A stretch of 64,000 nt of DNA from Terriglobia bacterium (GTDB lineage Bacteria > Acidobacteriota > Terriglobia > 20CM-2-55-15), in contig CBDAOY010000008.1 in assembly GCA_965198225.1 (NCBI GenBank), positions 704,001 through 768,000 on the forward strand, written 5' to 3'. A program made the position numbers and the translations under genes. Positions within the stretch are counted from its first letter, which is position 1. Each line of letters opens with the position of its first letter. Below are positions 44,429-48,958 of the stretch, piece by piece. Under the pieces are notes generated by a model. That model did no database searches. It was not told the origin of the DNA and was given only the letters and a program-made list of their open reading frames with translations.

Positions 44429-45379
44429 ATGCAGCGATTCTCGGTTTATCTGACCCTCTTTCTGCTTCTGTGCGTTGGAGGCACGGCCGTCGCCCAGGAT
44501 GTGATCCGCACCTCGAACCCCGGCGACCGGGGTCTGGGCGAAGACGACTTCCCGAGAGTCAAGAGGATCGCTCGGAATGTCTATACCTACGAAGCGCTGA
44601 CAGGACCGGCCGACGACCGCTACACCACGAACACGATGTTTGTCGTCAGCGACGAGGGTGTCCTGGTTGCCGATGGCCAGGGAAACCCTGCCGAGACGGC
44701 GCGGCTCGTGGAAGAGATCGGCAAGATCAGTGACGCGCCGATCACGCAGGTCGTGATCTGTTCCGATCATGGGGATCATACGAACGGCAACGTGTCGTTT
44801 CCTCGGACGGCCGACTTCATCGCTCATCCAGACTCGAAGGCGAATCTGGAGCGCGCGGCGAGCAATCCCGCCCGGAGGCCCGATGCACCTGAGGTCGTGA
44901 TGCCGACGACACTGGCCCAGGACCGTCTGGTCGTGGAACTCGGGAGTACGGAAATCCAGATTCTGTTCCTTGGTCGGGCACATACCGGCGGAGATCTGTT
45001 CGTCTACCTGCCGGAGGAAAAGATCCTGTTCACGACCGAGGTCTTCCTGAACCGGCTCTTTTCGGGTTATCGCAGCTCCTACCCGAGCGAGTGGCTGGAG
45101 GTTATGACCAAAGCGGAAGAGCTCGACGTCGATGTCTACCTTCCAGGCCACGGTTTCATCGATGATCCTGAGGTTCTCGAGGAAGAATGGTTCGCGTACA
45201 AGCGCCACATGGAGGTCGTACTTGCAGAAGTCCAGCGCCTGCACGCGGCGGGACTCTCCGTTGAGGACGCGATCGATCAGGCGGATTTCGGCGAGTACTC
45301 CACGTGGTCCGGAGCCGAATCGCAGGGGCCCATCGGGATCCGGCGGATCTACGCGGAGCTGAACGGAGAGTTGAACTAG
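44429..45379 (+). CDS. exported MBL-fold metallo-hydrolase
   Basis: GGAGGAG RBS, signal peptide, SDHGDHTNGN, AHTGGD, PGHG. Confidence 0.88.
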   Translation: MQRFSVYLTLFLLLCVGGTAVAQDVIRTSNPGDRGLGEDDFPRVKRIARNVYTYEALTGPADDRYTTNTMFVVSDEGVLVADGQGNPAETARLVEEIGKISDAPITQVVICSDHGDHTNGNVSFPRTADFIAHPDSKANLERAASNPARRPDAPEVVMPTTLAQDRLVVELGSTEIQILFLGRAHTGGDLFVYLPEEKILFTTEVFLNRLFSGYRSSYPSEWLEVMTKAEELDVDVYLPGHGFIDDPEVLEEEWFAYKRHMEVVLAEVQRLHAAGLSVEDAIDQADFGEYSTWSGAESQGPIGIRRIYAELNGELN

Positions 45380-45450
45380 TGGCCTGTAACAGTGCGATCG
45401 GTACCTGCGTTCGGCGGAACGGCGTCGGATTCTAGGAGTGACGCTCGAGC
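45376..45450 (+). mobile_element. left-end fragment of MITE family B
   Basis: 75 bp matching 15273-15347 with 4 mismatches. Confidence 0.85.
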
Positions 45451-45490
45451 TGAAGGCTGATTGCTCTGCGATACTTGAAGAATTAGTGGG

Positions 45491-45519
45491 TTGACACACT
45501 TCAGGCGGGAGTTCAAACT
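45491..45519 (+). promoter_or_regulatory. sigma70 promoter of the phhA leader
   Basis: TTGACA-N17-CAAACT. Confidence 0.65.
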
Positions 45520-45529
45520 TGTTGTTGCG

Positions 45530-45664
45530 ATGAACCTCGAGAGCACAAATCGAATTGGACAAACCGACGACGCGGCCACTGCCGCAGCCCAGCGGCGTGC
45601 TCTGTCTGCCGGCTACTACTTTTATTACTCTTACGCGTACTCGCGGAGGTGGATAGCCGGGTAA
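45530..45664 (+). CDS. Tyr-rich attenuator leader peptide (44 aa)
   Basis: MNLESTNRIGQTDDAATAAAQRRALSAGYYFYYSYAYSRRWIAG; 6 Tyr + 1 Phe in 9 codons. Confidence 0.8.
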   Translation: MNLESTNRIGQTDDAATAAAQRRALSAGYYFYYSYAYSRRWIAG

Positions 45665-45689
45665 GCTGATCGAAACAGCAAAGGATTTC

Positions 45690-45732
45690 AAAGCCCGCTT
45701 CCACCGACGGTGGAGGCGGGCTTTTTCTTTTT
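45690..45732 (+). terminator. attenuator terminator upstream of phhA
   Basis: AAAGCCCGCTTCCACC-GAC-GGTGGAGGCGGGCTTT-TTCTTTTT. Confidence 0.88.
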
Positions 45733-45749
45733 GGAAGGAGGAAACTCAG

Positions 45750-45920
45750 ATGATTCACGATCCATTCGATGATCCGGGCCTGGAGGTGGCCTGGGAACCT
45801 GCACCAGATGACGAGCCACCGGCTCGCCTGTTGCGGTTTCCCGGGGTCACAGTCGCTTCCGAGTTCGACGAGCGTGTGTTGAACGACCCCAAGGAGGTCC
45901 TCGATGGAAGTCGCGCTTAA
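45750..45920 (+). CDS. small acidic protein (56 aa) overlapping the phhA start
   Basis: AAGGAGG RBS; MIHDPFDDPGLEVAWEPAPDDEPPARLLRFPGVTVASEFDERVLNDPKEVLDGSRA. Confidence 0.55.
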   Translation: MIHDPFDDPGLEVAWEPAPDDEPPARLLRFPGVTVASEFDERVLNDPKEVLDGSRA

Positions 45921-46767
45921 GAGCATCGCTTTCCTGGACCTTGACCACCCCGGCGCCAGGGATCCGGTATACCGCCTCCGCAGGGATTCCATCGCGCAAC
46001 TGACTCGGGAGTCGAGAGAGAAGGGAGAGCCGCCGCCGGTTCTCGAATACACCGAAGAAGAGCATGGCGTCTGGAGGATCATTTGCACCAGGCTGGGTCC
46101 GCTGCACGAACAGCATGCGAACAGGCGCTATCTGGAGGCGAAGAAGGCGCTTCGAATACCCGAGGATCACATTCCGCAGCTTCGGGAGTTGAGCGATCGA
46201 CTTGCCAGCTACCATGGTTTTCGGCTCGGGGCGGTCGAGGGGCTCGTCGATTCCCGGAGCTTCCTGAGCCAGTTTGCGCAGAAGTCGATGTGGTGCACTC
46301 AGTACATCCGTCACGCCTCCAGGCCCGAATACACACCGGAGCCCGACATCATCCATGAGGTCATCGGACATGTACCCGCGTTCACGGACAAGGACCTGTG
46401 TGACCTTTCGGTTTTGATCGGCCGGGCGGCGAGGGTTGCGAATGAAGAACAGCTCGAGCAGTTGGAGCGGATCTACTGGTTCACGATCGAGTTCGGGCTG
46501 ATCGAAGAGGCCGGACAGGTGAACGCCTACGGTGCGGGCCTCCTGGGTTCATTCGGCGAACTGCAACACGTGTATTCGGGAGAAGTCGAGAGGAAACCTT
46601 TTGTTCTGGATGAAGTCGTCAACGCGACCTACAACCACACCGAGATGCAGTCCAGGCTGTACGTCGTCCCGTCGTTTGCATTCTTGAGGGAACAGATCGA
46701 GCTCTACCTCCGGAAGTACGGGTTGGAGCATGCGCTGGAGAAGGAAGAAGTGACGAGCGAGCAGTGA
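45904..46767 (+). CDS. phhA: phenylalanine 4-monooxygenase (pterin-dependent aromatic amino acid hydroxylase)
   Basis: DHPG.RDPVYR.RR, CTQYIRH, YTPEPDIIHEVIGHVP, YWFTIEFGL, AYGAGLL.S.GEL. Confidence 0.93.
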   Translation: MEVALKSIAFLDLDHPGARDPVYRLRRDSIAQLTRESREKGEPPPVLEYTEEEHGVWRIICTRLGPLHEQHANRRYLEAKKALRIPEDHIPQLRELSDRLASYHGFRLGAVEGLVDSRSFLSQFAQKSMWCTQYIRHASRPEYTPEPDIIHEVIGHVPAFTDKDLCDLSVLIGRAARVANEEQLEQLERIYWFTIEFGLIEEAGQVNAYGAGLLGSFGELQHVYSGEVERKPFVLDEVVNATYNHTEMQSRLYVVPSFAFLREQIELYLRKYGLEHALEKEEVTSEQ

Positions 46768-46927
46768 GAAGAAGAAGTGGCGAGTGACAAGTGACGAGCA
46801 AGAAAGGACATAGAATGGGGACAGTCTCAACTGTCCCCATTCTATCGTACGTGTTTTGTTGCGTTTAAGGGACCCCTCGCACGCACCCGGTCCCCGCGGC
46901 GCAGCCGCCAACGGCCTACGACCTCCC

Positions 46928-48958
46928 CTACCGCTGGTCTCCTCCCCCCATCAGGTAGTCCCAGTGCTCCCGGGCCCGGCCGAGGATCCGCGGAAGGTCT
47001 TCCCCGAGAAGGTACCCGTCGTCGATCAGTTCGATCGCAGCCTCGGACACCAGGCCCAGGTAGTGCTCCCGGCTCTGGTAGCGTTCCTGGATCGAAGACC
47101 TCGGGTCGTCTTTCTGCATGCGCTCGGTCCGCGTGAGAGGGAGCGGTATGTAGGACCCCTGCATCCCTGACAACACGTTCTCCGGTCCGGATTCCGGACG
47201 GAACAGGTTCCAGCCGGTGTAGGTCGCAAGCGGTACTGCTACCTCCGGCATTTTGAGGCCGCCGACCTCGTTGCCGTCCGCATCGACCTGGGGAACCATC
47301 ACCGGAAAGCTGGACAGGACTGCCGGGGGTTCGATCGTCACGATTCCCTTCGTACGAAACTCCGGACCGTAGTCCGCGCGATAGGCGCCGTGGGGAGCGG
47401 CGGGCTGACCCACGCCCGGGAGTTCGGGGAAATCCACGTCCGCGGGAAGGACCAGTTCGTCACCGGCGATGCGCGGATAGCTGCTCGCCGGTGGAGGTAG
47501 TCCGTCCCGCGTCCAGTTGTCCATCGCCAGGAGCAGGCTCCGCATGAACCAGGAGTAGTCGTTCGGATTGCTCAACTGCTGCCCGCTGGTTTGTACCGGA
47601 GGGAATCGTCCGGGCCCGTGCTGGCCGCCGGCGAACGAGTAGATGCGGACGTTCTCCATCAACGGTATGTCTTCCAGACCGTCGATGGTCGTATGAATCA
47701 ACGATGCCGCCCGGCCCCAGTACTCGTAGGACGAGTTCGTGTAGAAGACCTTCGGCAGGAACTGCGGTTCGACGCGTGACAGGAGACCGTCCCGGATGCC
47801 CGTCTCCGCGTCGTTCTGCTCGACGTCCGTGAACGGGAAGATGTCGCTCGGGTAGAGCTTGTTCAGGAAAGGATGCCCGTCGCGGGACGGCTGCGCGAAC
47901 CGATGGTTGAAGCTTCCTCGGCCGCCCCCGGCCACGTGGGCGATGACGCCGTCAAAGGCCTTCCGGTGCCCCTCGTCCTCGTTGAACCCATAGTAGAGAA
48001 ACGTCCGTAGAAACCGGCCGCTCTGGGAGATGCCAAAGGCCAGGGCCCTGTCGATCGCGCCCTCGGGCAGCGAGAGTTCTTCGGAGGAGCCGTACTTCAG
48101 GCGCGAGACCGCATCCCGGATGGCAGCAGAACCCAGGCCGACGAGCGGCGGATCCTGCGACGTGTAGACGACGTCGTAGAGCTTGTGGGGTTCGAATCCG
48201 CCTGCCAGATAGACGCGCCCCCGATCCGGAACGACCTGTCCGTCCTCCAACCTCGCGAACTGCCACTGATCGCGGGGGACGACGCGGCGCTGGCCATCGA
48301 CCGAGTCCCGGACCGTCATCACGTTGGTGGAAGCATCCGGGTTCGCGACCAGGTAGGGGATGTGGTTGCGGTCGGCCAGGGACGCGTCGAACACCTTCCG
48401 GTTCACCACGACCTCACTCCGGACCAGGCCCTCGAGGGCCTCCCCGTCGTCGGTGGCGATCGGGGGATAGACACGAACCAGCCCATCCCGGAGGGGAGGA
48501 TCGAACTGCCAGCCCAGCCACAGCAGGGTGAACCCGTTCCGCATCAGGAAGCCGTCGCCCATATGCGCTTCGGTCTCCGGATCGATGCTTCCCTGGCCGC
48601 GGTTGAAGTATCGCAACATACCCTTGCCGCCCCGGTTCGACACTTCATAGAGGACCGTGCCGTTTCCCCTGGCGGCATCTTTCGGTTTGATGAGAAAGAA
48701 GTCGGAGTGAAATTCGACCCGGCCGCGTGTGTTTCGGGGCGCCAGGTCGATGTCGGCGATGATTCGGTTGGCCGAGTTGGCTGGATCGACCTCGAAGTAG
48801 ATCGTGCCCACCAGCTTCTCGTACGCGCCGGCCAGGCCATAGGCCTTCCCGACGGCCAGGTCCTCGCGCGAATGCACCTCGATACGAACGACTTCGGCCG
48901 ACGCGGTCGAAACGGCCAAGAAAACCACCGCTAGAAGTATGGGTAGGGAGCGACGCAT
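46928..48958 (-). CDS. exported alpha/beta-hydrolase domain protein
   Basis: Signal peptide, YEV.NRG, GISQSGRFLR, FNHRFAQP, EYWGRAASL, PQVDADGNE. Confidence 0.85.
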   Translation of the reverse strand: MRRSLPILLAVVFLAVSTASAEVVRIEVHSREDLAVGKAYGLAGAYEKLVGTIYFEVDPANSANRIIADIDLAPRNTRGRVEFHSDFFLIKPKDAARGNGTVLYEVSNRGGKGMLRYFNRGQGSIDPETEAHMGDGFLMRNGFTLLWLGWQFDPPLRDGLVRVYPPIATDDGEALEGLVRSEVVVNRKVFDASLADRNHIPYLVANPDASTNVMTVRDSVDGQRRVVPRDQWQFARLEDGQVVPDRGRVYLAGGFEPHKLYDVVYTSQDPPLVGLGSAAIRDAVSRLKYGSSEELSLPEGAIDRALAFGISQSGRFLRTFLYYGFNEDEGHRKAFDGVIAHVAGGGRGSFNHRFAQPSRDGHPFLNKLYPSDIFPFTDVEQNDAETGIRDGLLSRVEPQFLPKVFYTNSSYEYWGRAASLIHTTIDGLEDIPLMENVRIYSFAGGQHGPGRFPPVQTSGQQLSNPNDYSWFMRSLLLAMDNWTRDGLPPPASSYPRIAGDELVLPADVDFPELPGVGQPAAPHGAYRADYGPEFRTKGIVTIEPPAVLSSFPVMVPQVDADGNEVGGLKMPEVAVPLATYTGWNLFRPESGPENVLSGMQGSYIPLPLTRTERMQKDDPRSSIQERYQSREHYLGLVSEAAIELIDDGYLLGEDLPRILGRAREHWDYLMGGGDQR

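Follow-up and report, generated by a model that had tools for sequence, protein, structure and literature searches.

A putative tyrosine-sensing leader-peptide attenuator upstream of the phenylalanine hydroxylase gene phhA in Acidobacteriota

The DNA preceding phhA in a Terriglobia genome most probably constitutes a classical ribosome-mediated leader-peptide attenuator by which the level of charged tRNA-Tyr governs this gene, a reading which, from the sequence, we consider correct with a probability of about 0.85. Leader-peptide attenuation is textbook knowledge for Trp, Phe, His, Thr, Leu and Ile/Val, and the conversion of Phe to Tyr by PhhA is established enzymology. Within the window, i.e., the whole 64,000-nt stretch of DNA that was analysed, the four elements of the layout of such attenuators (an ORF with clustered codons, a terminator, an antiterminator and an anti-antiterminator) are all present upstream of phhA (Table 1), and the gene controlled would supply the very amino acid sensed, since its product scores as an equivalog of phenylalanine 4-monooxygenase (NF008877) and tyrA was not found in the genome.

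Table 1. Coordinates of the putative attenuator and of the adjoining features in the window
Feature	Position	Strand	Remarks
Promoter	45491-45519	+	-35 TTGACA 45491-45496, 17-nt spacer, -10 CAAACT 45514-45519
Leader-peptide ORF	45530-45664	+	44 codons + TAA (ATG 45530, TAA 45662-45664); peptide MNLESTNRIGQTDDAATAAAQRRALSAGYYFYYSYAYSRRWIAG
Segment 1 (anti-antiterminator 5' strand)	45609-45622	+	overlaps first Tyr codons; pairs with segment 2; MFE structure
Regulatory codon run	45614-45640	+	6 Tyr codons (5 TAC, 1 TAT) in 9, plus one Phe (TTT)
Segment 2	45646-45661	+	pairs with segment 1 or segment 3 (antiterminator); ends 1 nt before leader stop
Terminator hairpin	45690-45724	+	segment 3 45690-45705, loop 45706-45708, segment 4 45709-45724; 16 pairs
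Terminator T tract	45722-45732	+	TTTTTCTTTTT
56-codon ORF	45750-45920	+	MIHDPFDDPGLEV...; strong ribosome-binding site GGAAGGAGG upstream
phhA, phenylalanine 4-monooxygenase, 287 aa	45904-46767	+	PF00351, E = 2.3e-76
16-bp hairpin	46810-46845	.	terminator scan, reported on - strand; between convergent phhA and hydrolase gene 46928-48958(-)

The leader ORF and its tyrosine codons

The 44-codon ORF with a Tyr run described in an earlier note on this DNA was found exactly at the positions named there, the run reading TAC TAC TTT TAT TAC TCT TAC GCG TAC (YYFYYSYAY). A six-frame screen of the 6.4-Mb genome for small ORFs of 8-90 aa found just one with four or more Tyr in any stretch of 7 residues, the phhA leader ORF. 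A second mini-ORF with a "YYY" stretch (G000:C4:387830-387865, - strand) was set aside as a chance occurrence, as the apparent terminator associated with it is convergent and no gene lies downstream. A genome-wide search, with crude thresholds, for small ORFs followed by a terminator, whatever the amino acid, yielded 54 candidates, among which the terminator of the phhA leader is the most stable and no other convincing leader-peptide attenuator was recognised. The leader peptide itself has no match in Pfam.

Alternative pairings of the leader RNA

The earlier note had also pointed to the complementarity between GGTGGATAGCCGGG (45648-45661) and CCCGCTTCCACC (45694-45705) in the 5' arm of a 16-bp terminator with a U-tract; both segments are present as claimed and the terminator scan recovers a hairpin of 16 pairs with a 3-nt loop. 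The alternative partner of segment 2 corresponds to positions 45693-45705 of segment 3, so defined that helices 1:2 (45609-45622 with 45646-45660; -23.6 kcal/mol), 2:3 (45648-45662 with 45693-45705; -22.8 kcal/mol) and 3:4 (the terminator; -29.8 kcal/mol) are mutually exclusive. Overall, the RNA 45520-45735 folds with -92 kcal/mol (z = -5.47), a stability not equalled by any of 200 shuffled sequences.

The effect of a ribosome was simulated by masking a 30-nt footprint in transcripts ended ahead of segment 4. In the window, a footprint placed on Tyr codon 1, 2, 3, 4 or 5 leaves segment 3 paired with segment 2, and no such pairing occurs when the ribosome is at the stop codon or absent. The sixth Tyr codon (45638) lies near segment 2 and a stall modelled there gave no antiterminator, so that this codon may be a non-working one. 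Over seven sequences the same folding gave a clean switch in two, the window (G000) and the related locus L095, but only a partial switch in G002, G003 and G007 and none in G020 and G012; the behaviour foreseen for RNA folded with and without the ribosome footprint is therefore seen in the window and L095 and is partial or absent in five relatives.

None of the 4227 Rfam families matches positions 45200-46100 at threshold. The top match, a hepatitis C element (28.8 of 140 bits), is spurious, and the known amino acid leaders remain below their gathering scores, with 21.2 bits for Thr_leader RF00506 (gathering 55), 16.8 for Trp_leader RF00513 (41) and 15.2 for Leu_leader RF00512 (50).

Promoter and transcription

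The promoter TTGACA-N17-CAAACT is present where it had been proposed, and it is its conservation that argues for its being real: in 6 of 7 related loci (alignment A5) the hexamers are kept while the spacer has diverged, and 10 to 13 nt separate the -10 from the leader ATG. In the window the -10 ends 10 nt ahead of the ATG, from which we infer that the transcript has at most a very short 5' extension in front of the leader ORF. By consensus the promoter is weak, its -10 matching TATAAT at only 3 of 6 positions, which is why it escaped a simple promoter scan; the same scan returned no site in the entire interval 45000-47200 and hence neither supports the proposed promoter nor excludes another one.

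A weak hint of transcription comes from four short RNA-library contigs of one study, all identical to the window: two runs gave one contig each over 45535/6-45698 (depths 5.7 and 6.4), two others single contigs over 45785-45950 and 46026-46193 (depths 2.8 and 2.7). Transcript ends, strand and level cannot be read from these contigs, which may reflect DNA admixture, and the parts that they leave uncovered are uninformative.

Conservation in the PhhA clade of the window

Promoter, ATG, Tyr run, segment 2 and terminator occur in the same order in 6 of the 7 genomes (three genera) of the clade defined by the PhhA of the window, and in one metagenome contig; the exception is the G017 orthologue, which has the terminator and no Tyr ORF. 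In alignment A1 the leader ATG is invariant, and in the six longer-leader sequences the gaps between ATG and Tyr run are multiples of three (3, 6 or 9 nt). The run itself varies, being YYFYYSYAY in the window, YYFYYFSF in G002 and G003 and YYFYYFY in G012, with one Phe codon inside it in the window and three in G002 and G003.

All three helices are conserved. In an admittedly thin sample of 7 sequences representing about 4 lineages, and with structures derived from one of the 7, helix 1:2 has 87.8% of its cells paired as against 39-63% in slid controls, helix 2:3 90.9% as against 37-50% and helix 3:4 90.5% as against 31-57%, with four, two and three pairs, respectively, changed on both sides. 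Thus, folding and conservation together confirm the trp/his/pheA-type layout that had been recognised from the window alone.

Tyrosine leaders in other lineages

The expectation that Tyr-rich ORFs should precede other phhA genes was borne out not only by the clade relatives but also by metagenome loci and by some Bacteroidota, in which leaders recur with sequences differing from that of the window. Among Pyrinomonadaceae metagenome loci a Tyr-run ORF lies ahead of phhA in 60 of 69, as opposed to none of 69 on the reverse strand. The 46 distinct leaders of this family, mostly of the YRYYYYYGPLS type and with Phe within or beside the run in 4 of the 46 aligned, share a covarying terminator in which one pair is changed on both sides in 20 sequences. 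RNAalifold returns here only the terminator and a hairpin following the Tyr run, and the 2:3 duplex is not clearly better than in shuffled sequences (median z = -1.2, 35 loci). In Bacteroidota all six loci inspected display a Tyr-run ORF, a strong terminator and then phhA. A tyrA gene is present in 2 of 12 leader-bearing Pyrinomonadaceae genomes; of the 9 Bacteroidota genomes having a Tyr-run ORF, 4 possess it, one of them at a borderline score.

phhA and its neighbourhood

The PhhA of the window scores 257.4 bits against PF00351 (cut-off 22.7) and 250.6 bits against the NCBIfam equivalog NF008877 (cut-off 247). The gene does not follow the terminator directly, as the earlier note had it, the 56-codon ORF being interposed. 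This small ORF overlaps the start of phhA (45904) by 17 nt and its TAA falls within codons 5-6 of phhA, which makes translational coupling of the two likely. It is kept in all six loci of genera g1 and g10 and in L095, and no relatives of it were found in Pfam, NCBIfam or the Atlas. A two-tier control of phhA, in which the Tyr attenuator would be complemented by the small ORF product (56-91 aa, N-terminus MI-x-DPF-D/E) acting as a lineage-specific partner or regulator of PhhA, is a speculative extension that we regard as doubtful; if true, the small protein might take over from the N-terminal regulatory domain known from animal PAH, which is missing here, and act as a phenylalanine sensor, and a Phe auxotroph would weigh both signals in setting the conversion of imported Phe to Tyr.

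Downstream, the hairpin at 46810-46845 ends the phhA unit, which is therefore without a downstream partner gene. The neighbours of phhA are a MBL-fold protein and a hydrolase; the gene for pterin dehydratase (L091) is located about 44 kb away and no Tyr leader is found ahead of it.

The tyrosine pathway

The earlier note had asked whether the genome lacks tyrA. Profile searches of the 97% complete genome gave no PDH_N or PDH_C match, tblastn with the TyrA and PDT of relatives found nothing, and tyrA is likewise absent from the closed single-contig genome G002 of the same genus, in which neither PDH_N nor PDT was detected; taken by itself, the window's own genome, being 97% complete, may still have a gene that its assembly lacks. 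Also not found in the latter are pheA (PDT), an AroQ-type chorismate mutase (CM_2) and homogentisate dioxygenase (HgmA), and HPPD gave a match only below cut-off. The genome does encode chorismate synthase and pterin-4a-carbinolamine dehydratase. Since tyrA, pheA, AroQ-type chorismate mutase and homogentisate dioxygenase were all unfound, PhhA seems to be the sole source of tyrosine, and since pheA and AroQ-type chorismate mutase are lacking, its substrate would have to be external, that is, imported phenylalanine.

Of 150 Terriglobia genomes sampled across the class, 29 have a PAH, and these were grouped by the identity of their PAH to the protein of the window. The Tyr leader is found in 6 of 7 genomes of the window clade and in none of 22 of the other PAH clade, whereas PDH_N scores over the cut-off in all 22 of the latter and in only one of the 7, a genome without Tyr ORF. 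HgmA, in turn, is absent from all 7 and present in 12 of the 22, sometimes beside PAH.

Proposed mechanism

The features read from the sequence and their conservation, together with the alternative pairings and the genes present, suggest the following scenario for transcription start, ribosome stalling and response to tyrosine. Transcription would begin a few bases ahead of the leader ATG. If no ribosome is present, or if the ribosome reads through to the stop codon that abuts segment 2, the latter would be either bound by segment 1 or covered; with segment 2 unavailable, the 3:4 terminator would form and RNA polymerase would stop near 45730. A shortage of Tyr-tRNA, on the other hand, would make the ribosome stall on the Tyr codons at 45614-45634, where it would cover segment 1; segment 2 could then engage segment 3 ahead of the synthesis of segment 4. 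This 2:3 pairing would block the terminator and allow transcription of the small ORF and phhA, whose product would then convert phenylalanine to tyrosine. The switch would in this way set the share of imported Phe that is converted.

Alternative interpretations

Because Phe codons lie inside the run in the window as well as in G002, G003 and G012, Phe starvation could also relieve termination, and the attenuator might respond to a general shortage of Phe- and Tyr-tRNA, stalls at either type of codon being effective. A precedent could be seen in the Phe-Tyr-Phe leader aroR of Corynebacterium glutamicum, which according to a review (PMC11802643) responds to Phe and not to Tyr. However, Tyr is the only residue common to the runs of all lineages, most of the 46 Pyrinomonadaceae leaders are without Phe in the run or beside it, most Bacteroidota leaders also lack it, and the UUU codon belongs to the 1:2 helix, which offers a possible reason for its being kept. 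Moreover, inducing a Phe-consuming enzyme under Phe shortage would seem counter-productive rather than adaptive, so that we hold dual sensing to be improbable.

More improbable still is that the Tyr ORF and the hairpin represent an independent small gene, encoding a small protein or an sRNA, with phhA transcribed from a separate promoter and no switching at all. This would agree with the great stability of the terminator (-29.8 kcal/mol), with the RNA-library contigs of leader and phhA being separate pieces and with the G017 orthologue, in which the terminator stands without a Tyr ORF. Yet the T tract and the ATG of the small ORF are only 17 nt apart and therefore leave no room for a separate promoter, the complementarity of segment 2 to the 5' arm of the terminator is conserved with changes on both sides, and the peptide is unconserved between lineages outside the Tyr run. 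Furthermore, in each lineage examined Tyr-run leaders precede phhA, and the window's own genome has none elsewhere.

That the Tyr/Phe-rich peptide could be a product rather than a sensor, for instance a precursor acted upon by the neighbouring aromatic hydroxylase, is suggested by the adjacency of an aromatic-rich peptide and an aromatic hydroxylase gene, and ribosomal peptides with modified tyrosines have been reported. Nevertheless, PhhA passes the equivalog model for a phenylalanine 4-monooxygenase acting on the free amino acid, no further maturation or export genes adjoin and a terminator with an alternative pairing separates the two genes. An attenuator accounts for the tyrA loss seen in these genomes, which would be left unexplained by a peptide product, an idea that we find scarcely credible. 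A leader-peptide attenuator responding to Tyr-tRNA is the preferred interpretation.

Comparison with known systems

The established mechanism of trp and pheA is summarised in the review PMC11802643. The phhA leader resembles the enterobacterial attenuators (trpL-trpEDCBA, pheL-pheA, hisL, thrL and leuL) in having a short ORF with a cluster of codons for the end product, four RNA segments that form mutually exclusive 1:2, 2:3 and 3:4 pairings, an intrinsic terminator preceding the regulated gene and a stop codon that adjoins segment 2. Unlike them, it would sense tyrosine and control a hydroxylase that converts another amino acid instead of an enzyme of the chorismate pathway; its ORF is long (44 codons), apparently begins almost at the 5' end of the mRNA and has no Shine-Dalgarno sequence, and its host belongs to Acidobacteriota. 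Comparable, too, is the aroR leader upstream of aroF in C. glutamicum (Neshat et al. 2014, as reported in the review PMC11802643), likewise a Tyr-containing leader peptide that controls an aromatic-pathway gene by ribosome stalling; the difference is that, in that account, aroR consists of Phe-Tyr-Phe and answers to Phe, whereas Tyr accounts for 6 of the 9 codons in the phhA leader run and the enzyme makes tyrosine.

Tyrosine genes are also regulated by T-boxes, as stated in PMC1262725. The Tyr T-boxes of Firmicutes are similar in being RNA-level terminator/antiterminator switches that report tRNA-Tyr charging but, unlike the proposed phhA attenuator, they recognise uncharged tRNA by direct binding and work independently of translation; on 45200-46100 Rfam gave no T-box match even at E up to 10.

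The phhABC cluster of Pseudomonas aeruginosa (PhhR/sigma-54) is, according to PMC1173090, induced for Phe/Tyr catabolism and has a divergently encoded activator as well as clustered phhB and phhC. The two PhhA proteins belong to the same enzyme family (PF00351), but phhA in the window has unrelated neighbours, a pterin dehydratase gene some 44 kb off and no homogentisate dioxygenase that could be found. The earlier note's distinction between this gene and the PhhR-controlled catabolic type is borne out as regards gene neighbourhood and homogentisate pathway: the neighbours are unrelated, HgmA is unfound and HPPD stays below cut-off. An anabolic PAH has been published as a route to Tyr, in some cases the main one, for bacteria whose prephenate/arogenate dehydrogenase is absent or dispensable (PMC7311316). 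The fitness data presented there include the PAH gene of Echinicola vietnamensis, and the passages on them mention no leader peptide or attenuator; in the genome of the window pheA was not found either.

Novelty and biological meaning

What appears to be undescribed is only the attenuator, the anabolic role of PAH being already known. Full-text searches, which did not extend to most subscription journals, so that an earlier description may exist, yielded no account of a leader peptide or attenuator for phhA, in line with the earlier note's statement that no characterised Tyr leader of this kind was known; in the papers searched, tyrosine was met only in connection with T-boxes and protein regulators. 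If true, a phhA leader with Tyr codons would add tyrosine to the amino acids subject to leader attenuation and would extend the mechanism to Acidobacteriota and, judging from the loci seen, Bacteroidota.

Since, in the sample of the class, the leader-bearing clade is without tyrA and HgmA and the leaderless clade has tyrA always and HgmA often, the leader marks the tyrosine-making PAH. It could accordingly serve in annotation, allowing tyrosine-making and catabolic PAH to be told apart from the sequence alone, and should improve predictions of auxotrophies and pathways. With pheA, tyrA and AroQ-type chorismate mutase all unfound, the lineage should depend on phenylalanine from its surroundings and convert it to tyrosine as needed.

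Organization of the phhA locus

The gene for phenylalanine hydroxylase (PhhA or PAH), the enzyme that converts phenylalanine to tyrosine, matches PF00351 with E = 2.3e-76 in a profile search and lies above the curated cut-off of the phenylalanine 4-monooxygenase equivalog (250.6 bits vs 247). Since an MBL-fold protein is encoded upstream and a convergent alpha/beta hydrolase downstream, the transcription unit would comprise only the leader, a small ORF and phhA. The window sequence and the terminator scan bear out the positions at which the earlier note had placed the promoter, leader ORF, Tyr run, paired segments and terminator; it had phhA follow next after the terminator, having missed the intervening small ORF. 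Between the convergent phhA and hydrolase genes lies a perfect 16-bp hairpin (46810-46845) that probably ends both transcripts.

Features of the phhA transcription unit (window positions)
Feature	Position	Strand	Basis
-35 hexamer TTGACA	45491-45496	+	read from window sequence
Promoter spacer, 17 nt	between -35 and -10 hexamers	+	read from window sequence
-10 hexamer CAAACT	45514-45519	+	read from window sequence
Gap from -10 to ATG	10 nt	+	read from window sequence
Leader ORF, 44 codons, stop TAA at 45662-45664	45530-45664	+	window sequence, ORF listing
Tyr-codon run (six Tyr, one Phe, one Ser, one Ala codon)	45614-45640	+	
Terminator hairpin, 16 bp	45690-45724	+	terminator scan
Terminator T tract	45722-45732	+	
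Small ORF, 56 codons, strong ribosome-binding site	45750-45920	+	ORF listing
phhA	45904-46767	+	PF00351; phenylalanine 4-monooxygenase equivalog

The small ORF is found in all six loci of the genera g1 and g10 as well as on the metagenome contig L095, with a length of 56-91 aa. Among relatives its N-terminus, MI-[HYC]-DPF-[DE], is kept, with third codon positions varying synonymously; its middle is variable and acidic, and its TAA stop always falls within phhA codons 4-6 (overlap 11-17 nt). No family match was found for its product, which could be a partner protein, or the ORF could couple translation to phhA. In Pyrinomonadaceae loci (L019-L057, L100-L170) the separate small ORF is replaced by an in-frame N-terminal extension of PhhA, ~30 residues long and bearing a conserved LL-S/A-DHVD-M/A-R motif.

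A single short contig, identical to the window, was obtained from each of four RNA-library runs of one study. Two cover 45535/6-45698, i.e., the leader up to the terminator 5' arm (depths 5.7 and 6.4), one covers 45785-45950 (depth 2.8) and one 46026-46193 (depth 2.7); contigs of this kind reveal neither ends nor strand nor level, and the libraries may contain DNA, so that they hint only weakly at the presence of the leader region in RNA samples.

Alternative helices of the leader RNA

The RNA spanning 45520-45735 folds at -92 kcal/mol (z = -5.47), none of 200 shuffled sequences being equally stable. In its minimum-energy fold segment 1, which overlaps the first Tyr codons, is paired with segment 2 (anti-antiterminator 1:2) and the terminator 3:4 is formed. 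When the ribosome was modelled as a 30-nt unpaired footprint on a transcript ended before segment 4, a footprint on any of Tyr codons 1-5 of the window sequence caused segment 3 to pair with segment 2 (antiterminator 2:3); no 2:3 pairing resulted in the model when the footprint was moved to the sixth Tyr codon or the stop codon, or was left out. The stop codon lies directly 3' of segment 2, so that a ribosome finishing the peptide would cover this segment. As modelled, the leader switch follows a trp-type logic, and the freeing of the antiterminator by a stall at the Tyr codons, put forward in the earlier note, agrees with these folds for the first five codons.

Stability and conservation of the three helices; pairing values are from the seven-sequence leader alignment, which holds few independent lineages and whose structures were derived from one of the aligned sequences
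Helix	Position	Energy folded alone (kcal/mol)	Cells paired	Slid controls	Pairs changed on both sides
1:2	45609-45622 with 45646-45660	-23.6	87.8%	39-63%	4
2:3	45648-45662 with 45693-45705	-22.8	90.9%	37-50%	2
3:4		-29.8	90.5%	31-57%	3

Conservation in the PhhA clade of the window

In a search of relatives, six further genomes of the family, belonging to three genera, proved to encode PhhA orthologues of 56-72% identity, and L095 one of 71%. In five of these six genomes and on L095, phhA is preceded by a leader ORF containing a Tyr run and, after it, a terminator, the relatives' leader peptides reading ...SFGYYFYYFSFRGGG, ...RAYYFYTGGGG, ...RAYYFYYFYAAGGG, ...SFSYYFYYVS and MTSGTAEVTHSYYYGYPYWSRRRGEK. 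The sixth genome, G017 (locus L006; PhhA 58% identity), has a terminator-like hairpin with T tract directly before phhA, ~100 nt upstream, and no Tyr ORF, the short ORF found there (MLDSLSVDARS) being free of Tyr codons; this genome has prephenate dehydratase (PDT) and a weak match to the tyrA domain PDH_N.

Throughout the alignment the leader ATG is invariant, and the six longer-leader sequences have gaps of 3, 6 and 9 nt between ATG and Tyr run. The promoter hexamers are kept (TTGACA in 6/7, CA-N-ACT in 6/7) and the spacer has diverged. The -10 element ends 10-13 nt before the leader ATG, a distance suggesting that the leader mRNA is leaderless or nearly so. Masking by the ribosome yielded a clean switch only in the window's own genome and L095, a partial one in G002, G003 and G007, and none in G020 and G012. 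Folding and the pairing conservation of the three helices in relatives confirm the trp-type attenuator layout originally proposed.

Could the leader be a chance occurrence?

All six frames of the own genome (G000; 6.4 Mb, 9 contigs) were scanned for ORFs of 8-90 aa that have a start codon and, near the C-terminus, a single-amino-acid run, the Tyr threshold being at least 4 in 7 residues. Across all amino acids 4,764 ORFs were obtained, exactly one of which, the phhA leader, was for tyrosine; 54 were then followed by a hairpin and T run, and the hairpin of the phhA leader is the most stable of the 54. At a relaxed Tyr threshold (at least 3 in 6 residues) the number rose to 38 ORFs, 3 of which have a terminator behind them.

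The only further candidate deserving attention, a mini-ORF at G000:C4:387830-387865 (-), has three Tyr codons in a row in one frame, with a hairpin of -21 kcal/mol and a T tract behind it, and CAAACT stands 10 nt before an ATG, a spacing identical to that of the phhA leader. As a second Tyr leader it was dropped, since it lies at what seems to be a convergent terminator with no gene downstream on that strand, and the mini-ORF is probably due to chance. G000:C5:27846-27905 (+) holds a 19-codon ORF that encodes five Trp (LGWIPWWWPLGLASRQLPW); behind it lie a hairpin with T tract and then a 128-aa ORF, which we take to resemble 6-pyruvoyl-tetrahydropterin synthase/QueD. Chance Trp matches were many in the scan.

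Tyrosine supply and the apparent lack of tyrA

Family searches of the own genome, 97% complete, found neither of the tyrA domains (PDH_N, PDH_C), nor PDT (PF00800, pheA), nor CM_2 (PF01817; the mutase search covered the AroQ type), nor HgmA_C, and the best HPPD match (31.7 bits) is below the cut-off of 277. Chorismate synthase is present, as is a pterin-4a-carbinolamine dehydratase gene, located ~44 kb from phhA and preceded by no Tyr leader. A tblastn search with TyrA of two relatives and PDT of G003 gave no match. PDH_N and PDT were likewise not found in G002, a closed genome in one contig that belongs to the same genus, nor PDT in G001 and in both genomes of genus g10 (G012, G020). The absence of tyrA, which the earlier note had named as a check of its reading, is thus what these searches indicate. 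Both the chorismate-to-Phe/Tyr branch and the homogentisate route appear to be missing; with tyrA, pheA, CM_2, HgmA and HPPD not found, PhhA looks like the only tyrosine source and phenylalanine would have to be taken up. Gene content accordingly predicts phenylalanine auxotrophy in the lineages of G000, G001, G002, G012 and G020. G003 is the only genome of its genus with a PDT match (L176, G003:C1:3136000-3148000); the frame is short (245 aa) and adjoins transposase-like ORFs with several near-identical copies in the own genome, and the gene may be either an acquisition or a remnant.

In the class, PAH occurs in 29 of 150 sampled genomes, each at least 90% complete, which split by identity to the window's PhhA into 7 (at least 55%) and 22 (31-39%). 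The former, which represent three genera of one family and are not independent, have the Tyr leader in 6/7, vs 0/22 within 600 nt upstream in the latter; PDH_N is over the cut-off in 1/7 (G017, without Tyr ORF) vs 22/22, and HgmA is found in 0/7 vs 12/22, three of them beside the PAH gene. Outside the class the link between leader and tyrA absence is looser: PDH_N is absent in 10 and present in 2 of 12 leader-bearing Pyrinomonadaceae genomes, and among the 9 Bacteroidota genomes that carry a Tyr-run ORF (completeness not given) it is found in 4, in one of them with a borderline score. A phhA leader beside tyrA fits the two redundant tyrosine routes that a passage of PMC7311316 describes for Echinicola vietnamensis.

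Tyr leaders in other lineages

Among 90 genome-collection PAH loci (L011 being the same place as L002), a script found a Tyr-run ORF with hairpin and T run within 120 nt in 36, nearly all from Pyrinomonadaceae or other Blastocatellia (e.g., ...YRYYYYYGPLS.GRDG.AMGCR...). Metagenome PAH loci were considered where 400 nt or more of upstream sequence was available; 60 of these 69 carry an ORF reaching the threshold of 4 Tyr in 7 residues, vs 0/69 when the reverse strand of these stretches was read. In 46 distinct Pyrinomonadaceae leaders the terminator covaries, with two-sided changes of one pair in 20 sequences and of a second pair in 6; an antiterminator could not be confirmed in this lineage. 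A Tyr-run ORF, a strong terminator with T tract and then phhA were seen at all six Bacteroidota loci inspected (Pontibacter, Roseivirga, a Cyclobacteriaceae MAG, Sphingobacteriaceae MAGs and others). Tyr-rich uORFs upstream of phhA orthologues, for which the earlier note had proposed to look, are therefore found in near relatives, metagenomes and Bacteroidota. No Tyr-run leader ORF was seen upstream of the PAH genes of a gammaproteobacterial MAG, Myxococcota and Nonomuraea in the set, apart from two segments with at least 3 Tyr (loci L015 and L022) that are probably due to chance.

Relation to known attenuators

The phhA leader belongs to no Rfam family; the leader models fall well short of their thresholds, and no T-box is present. 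No description of a leader peptide or attenuator on phhA was found in the full-text literature searched, whose coverage leaves subscription journals mostly outside. A review of the TyrA family mentions, in the part concerned, putative attenuators on tyrA operons only and presents phhA as a catabolic gene controlled by PhhR or AsnC-type regulators (PMC1173090); in an excerpt of a 2005 survey T-boxes are named for the control of tyrosine at the RNA level (PMC1262725), and according to a section of a 2025 review the C. glutamicum aroR leader (Phe-Tyr-Phe) responds to Phe, not Tyr (PMC11802643). The anabolic role assigned to phhA in the earlier note is supported here by gene content and is not new as such, biosynthetic use of PAH having been shown genetically in other bacteria (a passage of PMC7311316).

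Five of the six features that define a classical leader-peptide attenuator are recognizable in the anatomy of the phhA leader, namely leader ORF, terminator, antiterminator, anti-antiterminator and a target gene supplying the amino acid, and on these its putative assignment to the class is based; the sixth is the in vivo response. The mechanism would be of a known kind, whereas the sensed amino acid (Tyr) and the target gene (phhA) appear to be undescribed. Judging from sequence, we consider it highly probable (about 85%) that a real, conserved Tyr-codon leader-peptide attenuator controls an anabolic phhA. The Tyr leader would offer a practical means of telling biosynthetic from catabolic PAH.
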